64,000 bases of DNA from Candidatus Latescibacterota bacterium (GTDB lineage Bacteria; Latescibacterota; UBA2968; UBA8231), in assembly GCA_965205655.1 (NCBI GenBank), contig CBDBIJ010000110.1, forward strand, positions 35,784-99,783. The letters are read 5' to 3'. Below the pieces are notes generated by a model. The model had not been told where the DNA came from and did not search any database. It saw only the letters and a list, made by a program, of their open reading frames with translations. The position numbers and the translations under genes were made by a program. Shown here piece after piece: positions 34,003 through 42,125 of the stretch. Positions within the stretch are counted from its first letter, which is position 1; each line of letters starts with the position of its first letter.

Positions 34003-35775
34003 TCAGTGGGTTCCCAAACTCTGGCGGGCCCGGATGAGCTCCGCGACTTCGGCGTTGATGCGGGAGACATCTCCGTCCTGAGAGTCCTGCACGGCTTCTC
34101 GAAGCTCCCGTCTCGACTGCTGTATCTGACGGGTCAGCGCCTCCTTCTGGAAACGCAGGATATGGTCTTGCCACTGCTCTCGAACATGGGACTCGTCGAA
34201 GCCCTCCATCGCACACAGCGAGATGAGCTGCGTCAGCGACTCGTCTTCGACGCCGCTCATCAGCTGGGATAGATCGAGGCTGTCCGTGTCGCCATGCTCT
34301 TCGAACAGAAGTCCTGCAAGGCGGCAACACCTCGCGTCGGTCATGTCGTTCGGCTCGAGTTGTTGCGCCGTTGGCGCGATGAGCTCGGGATGAAGCAGAA
34401 GGAGACCGAGGAACTCCCGCTCCGTTCTCGGCGGATCGGGCAACTGCTCTGACGGCGCCTCGCCGGGCTCAGGGCGGCGTTGGGGGCCGCGCTGCAGCGA
34501 GCGCTGCACCGTCTGCCGCAGGGCTTTCTCGTCGATGCCGAAACGTTCCGCCGTGCACCGGAAGAGGTGATCGAGGCGCACGGGCTCCCGGCACCGGGCA
34601 AACAGGGGTTGTACCGCCTGAACGGCTCGATCTCTGCCACCCAGGCTCCGCAGATCGAACTGGTGCGCGAGCTTTGAGAGGAAGTAATCGAGCGCCGGCT
34701 CGGCTGCCTCGATAGCGGCCTCCAGCGACGCTCGGCCTTCCGCGCGCACGAATGAGTCCGGATCGTGATCCCGGGGAAGCGACACGACGCCGGCATCGAC
34801 CCCGGCTGCGAGCAGCACCTCGATGCCGCGCATGGCAGCCGTCGATCCGGCGGAATCTCCGTCGAAAAGCAACACGACCCGGTGTGTGTAGCGCCCCAGC
34901 GTGCGGCAGTGCTCTTCTGTGAGGGACGTGCCCGATGAGGCGACGACGTTCGGGACTTCGTGTTGCACGAGACTGAGGACATCCATGTAGCCCTCCACGA
35001 CGATGGCGCAATCTCGCTTGCGGATGTCGTCGCGCGTCGAGCTCAGCCCGTACAGAACAGAGCTCTTGTGATATATGGGAGTCTCGGGCGAGTTGAGATA
35101 TTTCGGCTCGTCATCCGATGCGAGCGCGCGGGCGCCGAACCCGACGGTTCGGTCGGACAGATTGGCGATGGGGAAGATGAGGCGATTTCGAAAGCGATCG
35201 TAATGACCGGGGCCCCTGCGGCTCGGCAGTGCCAGTCCGGCCTTCTCGAGGAGCTCGGGTTTGAAACCGCGGCGATCCGCCACTGGGAGGAAGTCCGTCC
35301 ATCCGCCCGGGGCATAGCCGAGGGCGAAGCGATCGATCGTCTCGTCCGCGATGCCGCGCCGGCGAAGGTAACCCAGCGCCGCGGCTCCCACCTCCTGACC
35401 CAGCATATGGTGGAAGTACTTCTTCGCCAGCTCGCTGGCCCTGAAGAGCTGGTCGGCGACCTCGCTCTCACCGTCACCTTTGCGAGGCAGCGGAATGCCA
35501 GAGCGGTCGGCGAGAAAGGAGACGGCTTCGACGAAGCTGACTCGATCGACTTCCTGCAGAAACGTGAAGATGTTCCCCCCTGCACCGCAGCCGAAACAGC
35601 GATATATCTGCAGCTCCGGATTGACGCTGAAAGAGGGAGTCTTCTCGTCATGGAAGGGACACAGACCGAAGAAGTTCCGACCGCGCTGCTTCAGCTGTAC
35701 GTGCTCCGATACGACGTCGACAATATCGGCTGTCGAACGGATGCGATCGATAGTCTCTTCGGGGATGCGGGCCAT
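34003..35775 (-). CDS. dnaG: DNA primase
   Basis: Zn finger 'CPFHDEKTPSFSVNPELQIYRCFGCG', TOPRIM 'VVEGYMDVL...LFDGDSAG'. 590 aa. Confidence 0.92.
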   Translation of the reverse strand: MARIPEETIDRIRSTADIVDVVSEHVQLKQRGRNFFGLCPFHDEKTPSFSVNPELQIYRCFGCGAGGNIFTFLQEVDRVSFVEAVSFLADRSGIPLPRKGDGESEVADQLFRASELAKKYFHHMLGQEVGAAALGYLRRRGIADETIDRFALGYAPGGWTDFLPVADRRGFKPELLEKAGLALPSRRGPGHYDRFRNRLIFPIANLSDRTVGFGARALASDDEPKYLNSPETPIYHKSSVLYGLSSTRDDIRKRDCAIVVEGYMDVLSLVQHEVPNVVASSGTSLTEEHCRTLGRYTHRVVLLFDGDSAGSTAAMRGIEVLLAAGVDAGVVSLPRDHDPDSFVRAEGRASLEAAIEAAEPALDYFLSKLAHQFDLRSLGGRDRAVQAVQPLFARCREPVRLDHLFRCTAERFGIDEKALRQTVQRSLQRGPQRRPEPGEAPSEQLPDPPRTEREFLGLLLLHPELIAPTAQQLEPNDMTDARCCRLAGLLFEEHGDTDSLDLSQLMSGVEDESLTQLISLCAMEGFDESHVREQWQDHILRFQKEALTRQIQQSRRELREAVQDSQDGDVSRINAEVAELIRARQSLGTH

Positions 35776-36291
35776 GGGAGGCGAATGCTGCGGGCCGTTG
35801 GCGGCTCGCCGGGCTCGATGCGTTTCGGTTAAGCTACCTTGCCACTGTTACCCAGTCAAAAGGAAGGGTGACAACCACTGGTGGTGTCATCGATCCAAAC
35901 TTTACCCCTCCCGTTGTGGTTGGTCGAGCATTTATTTAACAGGCTTCATGGAACCGTCGCAAGCCTGCTGCACCGCGGGAGTCGAGGCTGCCTGATTGTC
36001 GGCGGACGCGTGTGGTGTCCTGTATCACAGTCCGATCTTGCCGAGAGGCGTATCTTTCACATCGTCTTGTTGTCCGATCTGTCCGCCCGGGTGGCTGGTA
36101 GTGACAGCGGGTGTGCGGACGTAACTCAATACGTGGCAACCGGTTGTGTGTTTTCAGCGGCATCGAGGGCTTGGGGGGAGATTTTGTTGTCCGGCCGCCT
36201 CCGTTGGCCGGTCGCGAGCTTTCCAATAGGTTGCAGACCAGGGTGAAATTTGGGTGTTTCGCCGCGAACGGGGAAGTCTACAAGAAATTCC

Positions 36292-36319
36292 TTGACTTGG
36301 GGTGACAATGCCCTAAATT
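36292..36319 (+). promoter_or_regulatory. candidate sigma70 promoter (TTGACT-N16-TAAATT) for paralog 1
   Basis: Read from sequence. It would give a ~170-nt leader. Confidence 0.3.
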
Positions 36320-36493
36320 AAGCACGCTTTTCCCGATCTATATGAGAAGTAAATCCTGTTCTCGACTTGAGTTGGGAGAATTCGACCACGCGCGTTGAAA
36401 CGGCCGCGCGCCGCGACGGCGTCAAGGTGTGTGCTCCACGATTGACAGTTTAAATGTGTCTCAAAGTGAAATCGACGAGGAGGATAAGGGATT

Positions 36494-38260
36494 ATGTCGA
36501 GAGGTAACAAGATGTTCTTAACCAGCGCTGGGCTGCTGTTTCTGGCTGTGGCAATCATGTGGGCGAACCCTGCGGCGGCACGCTCAGTCACGGGTTCAGT
36601 TGCAGCGGTGGACAACGTAGCTCCCGATCCTCCGGCCAGTGCGGAAGCCTTCCCCGGTGCGGGTGGTGTCGACGTGTCCTGGGAACTGTCCCCCTCGGAG
36701 GGAGTGCGCCAAACGGCAGTTGGTAGAGACTTCACGTCGTTTGGCACCTTCGCCAACACGCGCGACGTAACGGGCTACAATGTCTGGTACAGCGAGAGTG
36801 GAGCTGACTTCGTGGCAATCCCGGGCGCCAGTGGCGGCCCCCCGACTGTAGGCCCTGGCGTGAGCGCCTACCTGGATGAGGGCGCCGTTAGCGGCCCCAG
36901 CTATGTCTACAGAGTGACGGCCTGGGACGGAACGAACGACAGCGACCCCACCGAGACCGGTCCGGTGAGTCTCGGCCCGCCGCCGGTGCTCATCATGGCG
37001 ACGGACGACATCGATCTCGGCTCGGTCGGCCCTGGCGGCACCAGCTCTGAGACCGTCACCGTGACGAACGATGCTGACGACGCCGAGGCCCTGCTGTTCG
37101 TCCGACTCGAAGTGGAAGGCGACGGCTTCAGCGTCTCCGACGAGTCGATCACCGTCGCCGCGAACGCCTCGGGTACCTTCGACGTGAGTTTCGATGCGAC
37201 GGGCGTCGGCGACCTCAACGGCGACTACGTGGGAACCCTGACGGTCAGCACGAACGACCCGGATCCGGATGACCGCGTGGTCGAGATTGGTCTGAGCGCC
37301 ACAGTCGCAGGTGGCGTCGATGTGGCGAGCGTTTCGCTCAGCGCTGAGTCAATCAGCTTCGGCCAGGTTCTTATCGACGAGACTTCGGACAGGACACTGA
37401 CGATCACAAACAATGGCGGCCTCGACCTCGAAGCGACACTGGCGCTTGCCGGAGACTCCGAATTCACGATTTCTACCGACATGGCAACCGTCGCAGCTGG
37501 TACCACCGCTGACGTGACTGTGACTTTCTCGCCGGTAGCGGAAGCGACCTCTTCTGCTACACTGACTGTTTCGAGCAACGATCCCCACAATCCGACTCTC
37601 GATGTGTCCCTGTCCGGTAGCGGCGTGACCGAAATCGTCGGGCCAGGGGTGGTGCAGGTCACAGTCCAGGACGTGCAGATGACCTTCGCCATGGATCTGA
37701 ACCTCACGGATCAGATGGCCGTGGACGATTTCACGGCCGCTTTCAAGACGGCACTCGCCGCTGAGCTGGGCATTTCCGTGGACAGAATCATCAACATCAC
37801 TCTCACTGCGGGCAGCACGATCGTCGACTTCCAGATCATCGAGGATGCTGACCCGGCGAGCACGGAACCTTCCGCTGCTGCTGCGGTGACCGCTCTTGAG
37901 ACTGCAGTCACTACCGATGCGACGGTTTTCTCGGGTCTCAATCTCGGTGATGCCTCCGGCGTTGCAGGTGTCGCCATGGCAGTCAGCATTCAGCCGGTCG
38001 ACGACAACGGCAACGCGATTCTGGGTTGGTTCACGCGCGGTGGCACGTCGGTCAGCTTGGATGACTTCTTTGCCTTCGACGATGCCTTCGGCAGCGCTGT
38101 CGGTGAGCCATCCTTTGACACCCTGTTCGACATCGCCGGTGACACGGCGAGTGACCCCCCCGACGGCTCTGTCGGATTCGGTGACTTCTTCCGCTTCGCC
38201 GATGACTTCGGCAAGACGGTTGCCAACGCCGCTGATGTCCAGGCGTTGCTCGGAATCTGA
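36494..38260 (+). CDS. secreted surface protein paralog 1: Fn3-like + 2 ASH/choice-of-anchor-D-like Ig domains + alpha/beta module + C-terminal duplicated EF-hand/dockerin-like module
   Basis: 588 aa. SD GAGGAGGA. Signal 'FLTSAGLLFLAVAIMWANPAAA'. 'VDNVAPDPP'. 'IDLGSVGPGGTSSETVTVTND...TLTVSTNDP'. Tail '..LDDFFAFDDAFG...FGDFFRFADDFGKTVAN'. Confidence 0.8.
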   Translation: MSRGNKMFLTSAGLLFLAVAIMWANPAAARSVTGSVAAVDNVAPDPPASAEAFPGAGGVDVSWELSPSEGVRQTAVGRDFTSFGTFANTRDVTGYNVWYSESGADFVAIPGASGGPPTVGPGVSAYLDEGAVSGPSYVYRVTAWDGTNDSDPTETGPVSLGPPPVLIMATDDIDLGSVGPGGTSSETVTVTNDADDAEALLFVRLEVEGDGFSVSDESITVAANASGTFDVSFDATGVGDLNGDYVGTLTVSTNDPDPDDRVVEIGLSATVAGGVDVASVSLSAESISFGQVLIDETSDRTLTITNNGGLDLEATLALAGDSEFTISTDMATVAAGTTADVTVTFSPVAEATSSATLTVSSNDPHNPTLDVSLSGSGVTEIVGPGVVQVTVQDVQMTFAMDLNLTDQMAVDDFTAAFKTALAAELGISVDRIINITLTAGSTIVDFQIIEDADPASTEPSAAAAVTALETAVTTDATVFSGLNLGDASGVAGVAMAVSIQPVDDNGNAILGWFTRGGTSVSLDDFFAFDDAFGSAVGEPSFDTLFDIAGDTASDPPDGSVGFGDFFRFADDFGKTVANAADVQALLGI

Positions 38261-38475
38261 CCGAAAAATCATCTCTTTAGCCATGTCCCCGCTACCAGGG
38301 GGCAGGGTTTTTTTGTGCGGTGTCCCCGATCAGTCCTGTTCAGCGTGGGATGGGCCGATGTGGGGTGCGGCTCGATGAGTGACGGGGATCACGGCGCCGA
38401 ACCCTCCCGCCGGGTATGGTTCACAGGCACTCGCTCGAGGCAGACTGTCGACCTTCAGGGGCGACTTTTTTCTGC

Positions 38476-38504
38476 TTGACCTTCGCCTATCGCCAGTGTA
38501 GCTT
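38476..38504 (+). promoter_or_regulatory. candidate sigma70 promoter TTGACC-N17-TAGCTT for paralog 2
   Basis: Same -10 hexamer and spacing as the candidate rho promoter at 40464-40492. Confidence 0.45.
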
Positions 38505-38562
38505 TTCACTTACGCCAATTCGTAGAGGCGGGAAGATCCCTCTTTGAGAGGAGGCAACGCCG

Positions 38563-39618
38563 ATGGAAAAGTCGATTCGTATCGCCGCCGGTCTGGCCCT
38601 GGTAGCTCTCGCATTCCCCGCATATGCGGCTGCCGCCGTTTCGCAGCCTGTGCGGTCCGTTGACAACATTCCGCCCGAGCCGGTGACCGACCTGGTGGCT
38701 CTGGGCAGCGAGACCGGGGTCGTCCTCACCTGGAGTCTGTCAGTCGACGACGCTGTCTCCTTCACCCCCTTCGGCGATGTCATCGTGCCGCGGAGTGGGG
38801 TGCAGGGATACCGCATTTACAGAGAAAGCGACGTGCTGGGCGAGGAGCTGATCATCTCCCTCGCACCTGGCGTTTCCGAATTCATCGACGCCGGCGCCGC
38901 GGGCGGGGTCACCTACAAATACTCTGTCCGTCCATTCGATCTGGACAACGAGACGGACGTCGTAGTGGCGCCTGGCTCAGCCGATGACCTGGCCAGGATC
39001 GTTGCCCTGGGCGGGGCACCCTCAGTCGTCGTCGTGGTCAGCGTCATGGGGTCGATGACCTTCGATATCGACCTGGATTTCGATGATCAAGTCGTCGTCG
39101 ATGCCTTCGAAGCCGACTTCATCGCACTCGTGTCTAACGAGCTCGGCATCAGTCCCGACCGAATCAGGATCGTCGAGATCAGGGCGGGCAGCGTCATCGT
39201 CGATTTCGAGATCCTCGAGCCGCCAGAAGGGATCGAAGAGCCCGCAGCGGCAGACGCTTTGTCGACGCTCATAGCGCTCGTTGAAGACACTGAGACAGAT
39301 GAGTTCGTGACGCTGGCTCCTGTTCTTTCGATTGAGGATGAGACGACGAGCGAGGCCGTCGTCATTCCCAAGCCGGTGGATCCCGATGGCGACCCGATCC
39401 TCGGCTGGTTCACCCGCACAGGCGGCAGCGTCAGCTTCAGCGATTTCTTCGCCTTCGCCGATCACTTCGGCGAGACCTCTGCCGACGACGGCTGGGATGC
39501 CGCATTCGATATCGTCGTCGACGAGACGATCGACTTCAGCGACTTCTTCAAGTTTGCCGATGATTTCGGCAAGACGGTGGCCAATGCTGTGGAGATACAG
39601 GGGCTGCTCGGAAACTGA
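38563..39618 (+). CDS. secreted surface protein paralog 2: Fn3-like + alpha/beta module + C-terminal EF-hand/dockerin-like module
   Basis: 351 aa. Signal 'IAAGLALVALAFPAYAAA'. 'VDNIPPEP'. Tail 'ILGWFTRTGGSVSFSDFFAFADHFG...IDFSDFFKFADDFGKTVAN'. Confidence 0.8.
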   Translation: MEKSIRIAAGLALVALAFPAYAAAAVSQPVRSVDNIPPEPVTDLVALGSETGVVLTWSLSVDDAVSFTPFGDVIVPRSGVQGYRIYRESDVLGEELIISLAPGVSEFIDAGAAGGVTYKYSVRPFDLDNETDVVVAPGSADDLARIVALGGAPSVVVVVSVMGSMTFDIDLDFDDQVVVDAFEADFIALVSNELGISPDRIRIVEIRAGSVIVDFEILEPPEGIEEPAAADALSTLIALVEDTETDEFVTLAPVLSIEDETTSEAVVIPKPVDPDGDPILGWFTRTGGSVSFSDFFAFADHFGETSADDGWDAAFDIVVDETIDFSDFFKFADDFGKTVANAVEIQGLLGN

Positions 39619-39646
39619 ACAGCTGCCCTCTCTCGTCGTGCAAAAA

Positions 39647-39679
39647 CCCCGCCCTTGCTATGGAGCGGGGTTTTCTTTT
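39647..39679 (+). terminator. Rho-independent terminator after paralog 2
   Basis: CCCCGC-12 nt-GCGGGG followed by TTTTCTTTT. Confidence 0.7.
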
Positions 39680-39694
39680 GCGCCGTCCACTGTC

Positions 39695-40432
39695 ATGTTG
39701 CTCTGCCTCGCCCTTGCGGGCGTGTCGCTGTGGCCCCAGGCGGGCGCGACACGTGTCATTTCGGCGGTCGTCTCCAGCACCGACGACATACCACCTGCAC
39801 CACCATCGCACATTCAGGCAGCGGATCGGCCAGACGACAGTGGCGGTCACGTCGTCGTGACATGGGTGCTGTCTCCTGATGACAGGATCGTGTTTGTCGC
39901 ATTCGGCTCCGGCTCGGTCGTTACCGCCGCCGGTCCAGCGTCAGTCTTCCGGAGGCGGGGCATTTCGGATTACAGCATCTATCGCCTGCTCGTGGGCGGG
40001 GTTGCCACCCTCATCGGAGAAGTCGCCGCAGGCACCGACCGATTCGTCGACGGCAGCGCGCCGGACAATGTCGCGCTCCGCTATGAGGTACGTTCCTTCG
40101 ATGACGCTCACGAGACAGCCCCGGAGCTGGTTCCCGGATCGCCGGAGGATCTCGCCCGTACCGCGGTGGCCCTCGACAATGCCGCTCAACCTGTAGATGA
40201 GAACGGTCTGGTGGTGCAGGGATGGTTCAACCGCACAGACAACAAAGTGGGACTGGATGATTTCTTCCTGTTTGCCGACCGCTTCGGTCGAATCGAGGGC
40301 GAGATCTCCTTCGATGCCAGATTTGACCTCGATGGGAACGCGAGAATCGATTTCGAGGACTTCTTCATTTTCAGCGACAACTTTGGCAAGACGGTGGCCA
40401 ATTTCGACGAGATCTCAGGGGAGAGCGGCTGA
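39695..40432 (+). CDS. secreted surface protein paralog 3: Fn3-like + C-terminal EF-hand/dockerin-like module
   Basis: 'MLLCLALAGVSLWPQAGA', 'TDDIPPAPP', tail 'VQGWFNRTDNKVGLDDFFLFADRFG...FDLDGNARIDFEDFFIFSDNFGKTVAN'. Start uncertain (in-frame GTG at 39638 lies inside the terminator hairpin). Confidence 0.7.
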   Translation: MLLCLALAGVSLWPQAGATRVISAVVSSTDDIPPAPPSHIQAADRPDDSGGHVVVTWVLSPDDRIVFVAFGSGSVVTAAGPASVFRRRGISDYSIYRLLVGGVATLIGEVAAGTDRFVDGSAPDNVALRYEVRSFDDAHETAPELVPGSPEDLARTAVALDNAAQPVDENGLVVQGWFNRTDNKVGLDDFFLFADRFGRIEGEISFDARFDLDGNARIDFEDFFIFSDNFGKTVANFDEISGESG

Positions 40433-40463: not shown

Positions 40464-40492
40464 TTGACAAGCGGCGTCTTTCTCTATAGCTT
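40464..40492 (+). promoter_or_regulatory. candidate sigma70 promoter TTGACA-N17-TAGCTT giving a ~360-nt rho leader
   Basis: Read from sequence. The leader is long and in part C-rich. Confidence 0.45.
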
Positions 40493-40856: not shown

Positions 40857-42125
40857 ATGCCCCCTGAGCGAACGAAGCTGAACATCGTTGACCTCCAAGC
40901 GATGAATATCCTCGATCAGCACGAGCTCGCGAAGCAGCTCGACGTACCGGAGTTCCATGCACTGCGGAAGCAGGAGCTCATCTTCGCCATCCTGAAGGCA
41001 CAGACTGAGCGCAGCGGGCTTCTGTTCGCCCAGGGCGTCCTGGAGGTACTGGAGGAAGGCTTCGGCTTTCTGCGCTCACCCAGTTACAACTATCTCCCGG
41101 GACCCGACGACATCTATGTCTCGCACTCGCAGATCAAGCGCTTCGCCCTCCGCACCGGCGATACCATATCGGGCCAGATCCGACCCCCGAAGAACGACGA
41201 GAAGTACTTCGCCCTCCTGAGAGTCGAGGCGATCAACTTCGAAGATCCTGAGGTCACAAAATCGAAAACCATCTTCGAAAACCTGACAGCGCTTCATCCC
41301 GATGAGCGCTTGGGCCTCGAACACGATCCGAAGGACATGACGACGCGCATTCTCGACCTCCTGTCCCCGATCGGGAAGGGTCAGCGGGGGTTGATCGTCG
41401 CCCCTCCCTTTACTGGCAAGACAGTTCTGCTTCAAAAAATCGCCAACGCCGTTACTCGCAACCACACTGATGTGATCGTCATCGTTCTGCTCATCGACGA
41501 GCGCCCGGAAGAAGTGACGGATATGCTCAGGTCAGTCAATGGCGAGGTCGTGAGCTCGACCTTCGACGAGCCCGCCACCCGCCACGTGCAGGTGGCCGAG
41601 ATGGTGATCGAAAAGGCGCGGCGTCTGGTCGAGCACAGGCGGGATGTGGTCGTCCTGCTGGACAGCATCACCCGACTTGCCCGGGCCTACAACACCGTCA
41701 CGCCCCACAGCGGCCGTATTCTCACCGGTGGCGTGGATTCGACGGCCTTGCAGTGGCCGAGGCGATTCTTCGCGGCTGCCCGCAATGTCGAAGAAGGCGG
41801 CAGCCTCACCATCATCGGCACCGCTCTGGTGGATACGGGCAGCCGCATGGACGAGGTCATTTTCGAGGAGTTCAAGGGAACGGGAAACATGCAGGTAACC
41901 CTCGATCGCAAACTGAGCAACCGGCGGACATACCCCGCCATCGACGTTACAGCGACGAGCACCCGCAAGGAGGAGTTGCTCATGACCGAGTACGAGCTGA
42001 ACCGCTCCTATGTCCTGCGGCGCATCCTGAACCAGATGGGCATCACCGAGGGGATGGAGTTTCTCCTCGAGCGGATGCAGAGCACCAAGTCGAACGAGGA
42101 GTTTCTCAAGGTAATGAACGAGTAG
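40857..42125 (+). CDS. rho: transcription termination factor Rho
   Basis: 422 aa. 'GFGFLRS', '[15 protein letters not shown]', '[12 protein letters not shown]', '[13 protein letters not shown]', '[18 protein letters not shown]'. Confidence 0.95.

Follow-up and report, generated by a model that had tools for sequence, protein, structure and literature searches.

Between dnaG and rho, in the 64,000-nucleotide stretch of a Candidatus Latescibacterota genome that was analysed here (contig CBDBIJ010000110.1; referred to below as the window), there are three plus-strand open reading frames (ORFs) of 588, 351 and about 245 amino acids, which we call genes 1, 2 and 3, or the trio. The C-terminal module shared by their products is a divergent dockerin, the plug that fits the cohesin socket in cellulosomes. 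We consider it probable that the three proteins are non-enzymatic clients docking on surface-anchored cohesins, as part of a genome-wide, non-cellulosomal cohesin-dockerin system. What is new here is a divergent member of the known non-cellulosomal cohesin-dockerin systems that are coupled to anchoring by a type IX secretion system (T9SS); it is an incremental annotation and not a new kind of system. The genes and their modules are as follows (domain limits other than those of the dockerins are approximate, signal peptides are predicted, and HMM stands for hidden Markov model):

36494-38260, plus strand: gene 1, 588 amino acids; signal peptide 1-29, Fn3 domain 36-165, two choice-of-anchor-D/ASH Ig domains 170-378, alpha/beta middle domain 385-500, dockerin 501-588
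37994-38257, plus strand: dockerin module of gene 1 (HMM match to ORF residues 502-590, E 2e-39)
38563-39618, plus strand: gene 2, 351 amino acids; signal peptide 1-24, Fn3 domain 30-135, alpha/beta middle domain 152-268, dockerin 269-351
39367-39615, plus strand: dockerin module of gene 2 (AlphaFold2 model, Foldseek and PDB profile matches)
39695-40432, plus strand: gene 3, 245 amino acids from ATG 39695, alternative start GTG 39638; short signal peptide, Fn3 domain 25-150, dockerin 165-245
40187-40429, plus strand: dockerin module of gene 3 (genome HMM, module alignment, module tree)

Identification of the shared module as a dockerin

A single-sequence search of the PDB with the gene 1 module found nothing, and profiles were needed. 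One profile was built from the modules of the gene 1-3 family only (A4) and another from the same modules plus the canonical copies present elsewhere in the genome (A3). Against the PDB, A4 matched only dockerins at E<0.2; these were the top seven matches, the best being 4wi0_B with E 1.2e-4, followed by 4u3s_B, 2y3n_B, 5g5d_B, 2b59_B, 3kcp_A and 5k39_B. With A3 the best match was 2y3n_B (E 7e-8), and calmodulins appeared at E>0.03 only.

The fold leads to the same family. The AlphaFold2 model of the gene 2 module (predicted local distance difference test, pLDDT, 95.9; predicted template modelling score, pTM, 0.82) has a helix after each loop and a further C-terminal helix. When this model was compared with the PDB using Foldseek, 20 of the 21 matches were dockerins, 11 of them with a probability of 0.99-1.00, and the dockerins superposed with a root mean square deviation (rmsd) of 1.3-2.3 A over 53-61 residues. 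Type II/X-dockerins lead, with 2y3n_B at a template modelling (TM) score of 0.75 and 3kcp_A and 2b59_B at an rmsd of 1.3 A.

We also searched 1.84 billion representative proteins with A4. In some of the proteins retrieved, among them P0070, P0095, P0081 and P0118, the matched stretch is a Pfam Dockerin_1 (PF00404) domain above the cut-off (31.7 bits in P0070, residues 125-173 vs 128-181; 122.8 bits in P0095). A canonical copy of the module elsewhere in the genome of the window reaches 16.7 bits with Dockerin_1, against a cut-off of 22.9, and the alignment of canonical and window copies forms a continuous series from 'GDFNGD..VD' to 'GWFTR.G..V'. Each of the three proteins contains the loop-helix repeat '..V.(F/L).DFF.FAD.FG' twice, which is the architecture of a dockerin, where two loop-helix repeats of some 22 residues make up 60-70 amino acids. 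Because the PDB profile, the fold and the Dockerin_1-linked matches agree, the module, which an earlier note on this DNA had left unnamed and unrecognised, takes its place in an already described domain family, the dockerins, an outcome that the note itself had named as refuting its reading. The note had proposed a profile search to define the distribution of the module; A4 retrieved 3207 clusters at E<=1e-3, and in many other proteins the module is internal.

The ORFs and a three-way alignment bear out the description of the trio as same-strand secreted paralogs on one plan. In the tail of about 80 amino acids the alignment gives W-F-.-R...D-F-F-.-F...F-G...D-F-F-.-F-.-D-.-F-G-K-T-V-A-N, the segment 'DFFxF(A/S)DxFG' occurring twice, with GKTVAN at the end. 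The N-terminal domain has an invariant D..P.P and opens with D-(N/D)-(I/V)-(P/A)-P-x-P.

Cohesins, dockerins and type IX secretion in the same genome

The genome to which the window belongs (4.0 Mb in 150 contigs, 84% complete, contamination 2.7%) was searched for further copies of the module, as the earlier note had suggested, and about 15 more ORFs carrying it, often internally, were found by sequence search and HMM. These copies have textbook dockerin/EF-hand loops ('GDFNGDGxVDLDDFFxFADxFG') and are followed by a cohesin-like domain and then by a T9SS C-terminal domain (CTD), the sorting domain catalogued as TIGR04183/PF18962. The module lies about 300 amino acids before the C-terminus in proteins of 1.1-2.1 thousand amino acids, and near the N-terminus in others. 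A cross-tabulation of ORFs with HMMs built from this genome gave the following counts:

T9SS-CTD proteins: 57 ORFs, the trio not among them
Cohesin-bearing: 12 ORFs, with the CTD at the end in 11; the one exception looks frameshifted
Dockerin-bearing: 19 ORFs, of which 7 have dockerin, cohesin and CTD, 1 has dockerin and CTD, and 11 have the dockerin only

The dockerin-only ORFs include the trio and two ORFs of a duplicate copy of the locus on contig C106. A profile of the cohesin-like domains (A6) matched the NagJ cohesin (E 9e-6) and ScaB cohesins (about 1e-5) in the PDB, so these domains are true cohesin homologs; one of the proteins (on C86, 1304 amino acids) also exceeds the cut-off of the Pfam Cohesin model PF00963. 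The SprA translocon is present in the genome. Since 11 of the 12 cohesin ORFs have a CTD and 11 of the 19 dockerin ORFs have the dockerin only, the cohesin 'sockets' are found almost exclusively on T9SS cargo, and the dockerin 'plug' alone marks another class of proteins.

Two further sets of ORFs were observed. A small cohesin plus T9SS-CTD ORF on C69, at about 18.9-19.6 kb, has the size of a monovalent surface anchor; it is frameshifted, has no clear signal peptide and was not used as evidence. C15 and C58 encode near-identical dockerin-cohesin-CTD ORFs (460 and 431 amino acids, respectively), which differ by a 29-amino-acid deletion merging both dockerin repeats into one; either this is a variant with half a dockerin, or the difference is an artefact of assembly or strain.

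Conservation of the locus and evolution of the module

For gene 2 the protein collection yielded 61 homologs, all annotated as 'hypothetical protein' and one labelled Latescibacterota, and the aligned full-length orthologs are 44-97% identical. The genome records that hold it are metagenome-assembled genomes (MAGs) of Latescibacterota, some of them filed under Gemmatimonadota. In every related locus that spans both flanks the same order recurs: dnaG (minus strand), a gap of 0.5-0.7 kb, a gene-1-like ORF, a gene-2-like ORF, optionally a gene-3-like ORF, and then rho, rpmE, prfA and prmC. The number of paralogs in the dnaG-rho slot ranges from one (gene-3 type only) to three, and one genome has three gene-1-like copies. 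A scan of the phylum with the gene 2 profile at E<=1e-10 gave matches in 146 of the 168 genomes scanned; within the GTDB family of the window, 74 of 75 genomes had one. Some of these are partial matches (Fn3 or dockerin) in other proteins. From this synteny and from profile matches across the lineage it follows that the dnaG-rho block is an old and fixed feature of the lineage and not an insertion. The earlier note had seen in it an accessory block within a housekeeping stretch, a view that neither these data nor the GC (guanine plus cytosine) content of the three genes (0.58-0.64, like the flanks) support.

The note had also proposed, from the likeness of the tails at nucleotide level, either concerted evolution or strong constraint, and of these only constraint holds. 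In a maximum-likelihood tree of 35 modules, those of gene 3 group together (100/99) and those of gene 2 follow the lineages, while the gene 1 module of the window stands with those of L020, C106 and L047. No clustering by genome is seen, save for recent duplicates (L047) and a moderately supported pair (L025). Identical residues share the same codon in 31/48, 18/42 and 24/40 cases, against 23, 22 and 20 expected from codon usage. With modules clustering by ortholog and shared codons close to chance, concerted evolution was rejected, and the likeness of the tails reflects conserved residues kept by purifying selection in a genome that is biased towards GC.

In other genera (L021, L023, L027, L038, L040 and L045) the first gene after dnaG, the gene 1 ortholog, has a canonical dockerin tail with two loops, 'GDFDG..V.FDDFF ... 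GKSGTYV', which also speaks for the dockerin identity of the module; it is unlike the gene 2 type, whereas in the clade of the window gene 1 bears a gene 2-type tail. The difference is a hint that tails were swapped, or partners changed, in the course of evolution.

The contig C106 (8.6 kb), binned in the same MAG, carries a second copy of the region, from dnaG over genes 1 and 2 into the first part of gene 3, about 80% identical to that of the window. It was considered as a paralogous locus and rejected as such since it has its own dnaG; most likely no duplication took place, and a relative or strain binned together with this genome contributed its own copy of the locus.

Proposed role and alternatives

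In the proposed mechanism, the products of genes 1-3 would be exported through the Sec pathway as non-catalytic, modular proteins. The cohesins on T9SS-CTD proteins would act as sockets anchored on the cell surface, and the dockerins would plug the trio onto them non-covalently, probably in a calcium-dependent manner; the docked proteins would add an Fn3/Ig surface to a protein assembly of the cell envelope. Each of genes 1 and 2 has its own consensus promoter of the housekeeping type and a terminator. The earlier note had suggested a docking or sorting function for the tail, and the dockerin identity agrees with docking, binding itself being predicted.

Several observations weigh against this role. 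On genes 1-3, neither the Pfam Dockerin_1 model nor the EF-hand models match at E<=1; the probable cause is the degenerate first calcium loop, which reads GWFTR where D-x-N-x-D is usual. Positions 1, 3 and 5 of this loop are W, T and G, and a residue is inserted; the ligands are missing and the first calcium site is thus almost certainly lost. The W, F and R of GWFTR are themselves invariant in 33 gene 2 orthologs. Loop 2 is canonical in gene 3 (DLDGNARIDFED); that of gene 2 is one ligand short, with Val at position 3, as in most gene 2 orthologs, and that of gene 1 is broken by a 7-residue insertion. The calcium ligands (D/N at 1, 3, 5, 9 and 12) are not complete in both repeats, each module having at most one classical site, and on these sequences neither calcium binding nor a classical cohesin interface is assured. 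The modules also have extensions specific to the subfamily, an N-terminal beta segment 'PVDxxGxxILG' and a C-terminal helix 'NAxEIQxLLG', and the asymmetry of the loops suggests, by analogy with what is known of type II dockerins, that there may be a single binding mode.

The genomic context and the expression of the trio add to these points. The earlier note had proposed to look in the genome for a conserved partner gene; no cohesin gene is a conserved neighbour of the trio or linked to the locus in the related loci. As the three proteins have no T9SS CTD, their route across the outer membrane to surface cohesins is unexplained; only one secretin was found in the genome. Public runs that hold the locus look like metagenomic DNA at about 3x with flat depth, and therefore provide no transcript evidence. 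Codon usage of the trio is average (40-56th percentile, with an 8-gene reference), and an S-layer-like abundance, which was considered, is unsupported by it.

The dockerin fold might also serve without docking on cohesins, as an EF-hand pair that binds calcium or self-associates for stability, or as a binder of another ligand (polysaccharide, peptidoglycan or another domain of the trio). Such a function would suit the degenerate loop 1, the invariant W/F/R, the extensions specific to the subfamily and a locus without a linked cohesin gene. However, the genome encodes about 12 true cohesin homologs, the same extended dockerin adjoins the cohesin in giant Fn3-dockerin-cohesin-CTD proteins and the close structural matches are all dockerins that bind cohesins, so that we regard this explanation as unlikely. 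That the trio has no CTD leaves room for a periplasmic or hitch-hiking role, where the dockerin would catch cohesin-bearing T9SS cargo before or during export and the trio would be a passenger through the SprA translocon or an escort. The Sec-type signal peptides of the trio are compatible with this, as is the distribution of the CTD, which is found on 11 of the 12 cohesin ORFs and never on dockerin-only proteins, and the T9SS exports folded proteins. Yet a secretin-based route is also present in the genome, and piggy-back export is not known for the T9SS; we judge this role quite unlikely.

An extended form of the periplasmic role, in which the dockerin-only proteins of this lineage, which have no CTD and of which the near-universal trio is the core example, would get to the cell surface by binding cohesin-CTD cargo in the periplasm and riding the T9SS as a folded complex, seems to us just as doubtful. 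If true, the cohesin-dockerin pair would serve not only as a tether on the surface but also as an adaptor in export, and the fixed dnaG-rho slot with its consensus promoters would show that in this Latescibacterota family the trio is a constitutive part of the envelope. We find very improbable, finally, that the tail is a new signal for sorting or secretion that concerted evolution keeps uniform, in an accessory block inserted recently. The tails are alike at nucleotide level in short stretches and C-terminal in all three proteins, as such a signal would be, but the module is internal in many other proteins, and the grouping of modules by ortholog, the synonymous codons and the lineage-wide synteny described above argue against it.

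Comparison with known cohesin-dockerin systems

Among the closest known systems are the type II/X-dockerins of clostridial cellulosomes, which have the same two loop-helix repeats and gave the best profile and structure matches to the trio. Examples are those of Pseudobacteroides cellulosolvens Cel48 (2y3n_B), the X-dockerins of Acetivibrio cellulolyticus ScaA (4u3s_B/4wi0_B) and of C. thermocellum CipA (2b59_B, 3kcp_A). Motifs found in both groups include V/I and D at loop positions 8 and 12, respectively, as well as '...FGK(T)' past helix 3. The trio differs in having GWFTR for loop 1 and 'DFFxFAD' helices for 'D(L/A)xxLxxxLL', and in being invisible to Pfam Dockerin_1. Its host is a diderm Latescibacterota and not a Firmicute, its carriers are non-enzymatic Fn3/Ig proteins, and the cohesins are anchored through a T9SS CTD, whereas S-layer homology (SLH) domains or sortase are used in clostridial cellulosomes.

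Cohesin-dockerin pairs outside cellulose degradation, as here, are exemplified by NagJ/NagH of Clostridium perfringens (2ozn, 2jh2, 2o4e). The NagJ cohesin is the best match of A6, and the NagH dockerin is among the Foldseek matches of the module. These proteins are nevertheless enzymes of a glycoside hydrolase toxin complex in a Gram-positive bacterium, while the trio has no catalytic domain and a T9SS context.

For MAGs of Cloacimonadota (Ca. Stygibacter), cellulosome-like systems have been predicted, in which secreted proteins are tagged with dockerins and a T9SS CTD is borne by a cohesin scaffoldin (PMC8542988). As in the trio, these proteins have a signal peptide and a C-terminal dockerin and no CTD, and the CTD is on the cohesin proteins, for their attachment to the surface (PMC8542988). 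The clients of Cloacimonadota are, however, hydrolases or peptidases, and tandem cohesins are combined with carbohydrate-binding modules in the scaffoldin (PMC8542988), while no enzyme domain is present in the trio. Here, unlike in Cloacimonadota, most cohesin proteins have a dockerin of their own (dockerin-cohesin-CTD), and the client genes keep the same place between dnaG and rho throughout a GTDB family. For Latescibacteria, 'cellulosome-affiliated' enzymes were reported by Farag et al. 2017, as cited in PMC7081726; none of the papers that we searched links Latescibacteria to both dockerin and cohesin.

With this finding, a name and a testable class of partners can be given to conserved 'hypothetical proteins' that almost all genomes of an uncultured Latescibacterota family from marine and fresh waters encode. 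They represent a dockerin subtype, recognised by its DFFxFAD helices and by the degeneration of the first calcium loop, that is missed by standard Pfam, and because Pfam annotation misses it, cohesin-dockerin systems in MAGs of the Fibrobacteres, Chlorobi and Bacteroidetes (FCB) group are probably under-counted. The occurrence of cohesins on T9SS cargo together with dockerin-only proteins devoid of a sorting domain also sharpens the question of how the outer membrane is crossed.

Signal peptides and other domains

The N-termini of the trio resemble signal peptides, with a K/R n-region, a hydrophobic core and A-x-A, features that are kept in 33 orthologs, and we infer that signal peptides are present in all three proteins. 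A Pfam/NCBIfam scan of genes 1-3 gave no match to T9SS CTD (Por_Secre_tail, FlgD_ig, CHU_C), PEP-CTERM or LPXTG models, as the earlier note had maintained; none of the Pfam or NCBIfam models matched the tail, and no catalytic domain was found in the three proteins.

The full-length AlphaFold2 model of gene 2 (pLDDT 77.6) contains an Fn3 sandwich with strands at residues 42-125, which Foldseek assigns to Fn3 with probability 1.0 (target TM 0.55-0.74); the Pfam fn3 model does not match the N-terminal domain despite this fold. The Fn3-like N-terminal domain with a shared opening motif, joined to a common C-terminal module, had been anticipated by the earlier note, as had the two ASH/choice-of-anchor-D Ig domains of gene 1, which were recognised in two stretches above the curated cut-offs (NCBIfam NF012200, 83 bits against a cut-off of 45; Pfam PF22544, 73 bits). 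The middle domain of the gene 2 model, at residues 155-267, is alpha/beta and ferredoxin-like, in the order b-a-b-b-a-b-b. A PDB sequence search with it gave no match; similarity to FAZ1_cons, and to TRADD-like_N in 10 of 14 members with a best E of 1e-4, stayed below threshold.

A contig of a public run (X1) carries gene 1 with an in-frame deletion of 663 bp (window 36971-37635) that removes both choice-of-anchor-D Ig domains, a natural domain-loss variant from a related population.

Transcription signals and gene models

The flanking genes and the signals around the trio are as follows:

34003-35775, minus strand: dnaG, left flank
35831-35859, minus strand: promoter-like site of dnaG, TTGACT-N17-TAGCTT (exact TTGAC-N18-TAGCTT match)
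36292-36319, plus strand: gene 1 promoter, TTGACT-N16-TAAATT, the only sigma-70-like site in the scan
38284-38311, plus strand: terminator-like hairpin and T7 after gene 1
38476-38504, plus strand: promoter-like site of gene 2, TTGACC-N17-TAGCTT
39647-39680, plus strand: intrinsic terminator after gene 2, CCCCGCCC...GGGCGGGG-like stem and TTTTCTTTT
40464-40492, plus strand: promoter-like site before rho, TTGACA-N17-TAGCTT
40857-42125, plus strand: rho, right flank

Where 0.00 copies of the motif TTGACn-N17-TAGCTT are expected, the window has three, upstream of dnaG, of gene 2 and of rho; the whole genome has 34 at this spacing, compared with 1-3 at other spacings, and TA..TT at the N17 spacing is found 109 times genome-wide vs 8. 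The motif, whose -10 hexamer is unusual, probably represents the consensus of housekeeping promoters in this genome. Sites resembling TTGAC(T/C)-N16/17-TA(A/T)AAT lie 100-256 nt before the first gene in 24 of 24 related loci and in C106, and the gene 1 promoter falls in the sole segment of the intergenic region that is conserved by blastn.

The long non-coding stretch before gene 1 that the earlier note had pointed out is real, a gap of 718 bp (35776-36493). Rfam searches of the window and of a 0.9-kb upstream region found no RNA family in it. The approximately 430 nt between the divergent dnaG and gene 1 promoters (35860-36291) contain no ORF with homology and no Rfam match, and their conservation stops at the closest relatives. 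From the promoter to ATG 36494, gene 1 has a leader of about 170 nt; this 171-nt sequence folds no better than shuffled ones (z = -1.0) and has no Rfam match.

The terminator after gene 2 is conserved: when the upstream regions of L020, L021 and L040 are translated, its hairpin shows up as 'KPRP..GF'. The start of gene 3 lies 15 nt past this terminator, where no recognisable promoter was seen, and it probably depends on read-through. The longest ORF of gene 3 opens at TTG 39332 and stops at 40432; its start is likely ATG 39695 (245 amino acids) or GTG 39638, and the orthologs in L020, L021, L022, L029 and L040 have 237-272 amino acids. The terminator hairpin, when translated, mimics a conserved peptide, 'KPRP..GF', and so may flatter the GTG start.

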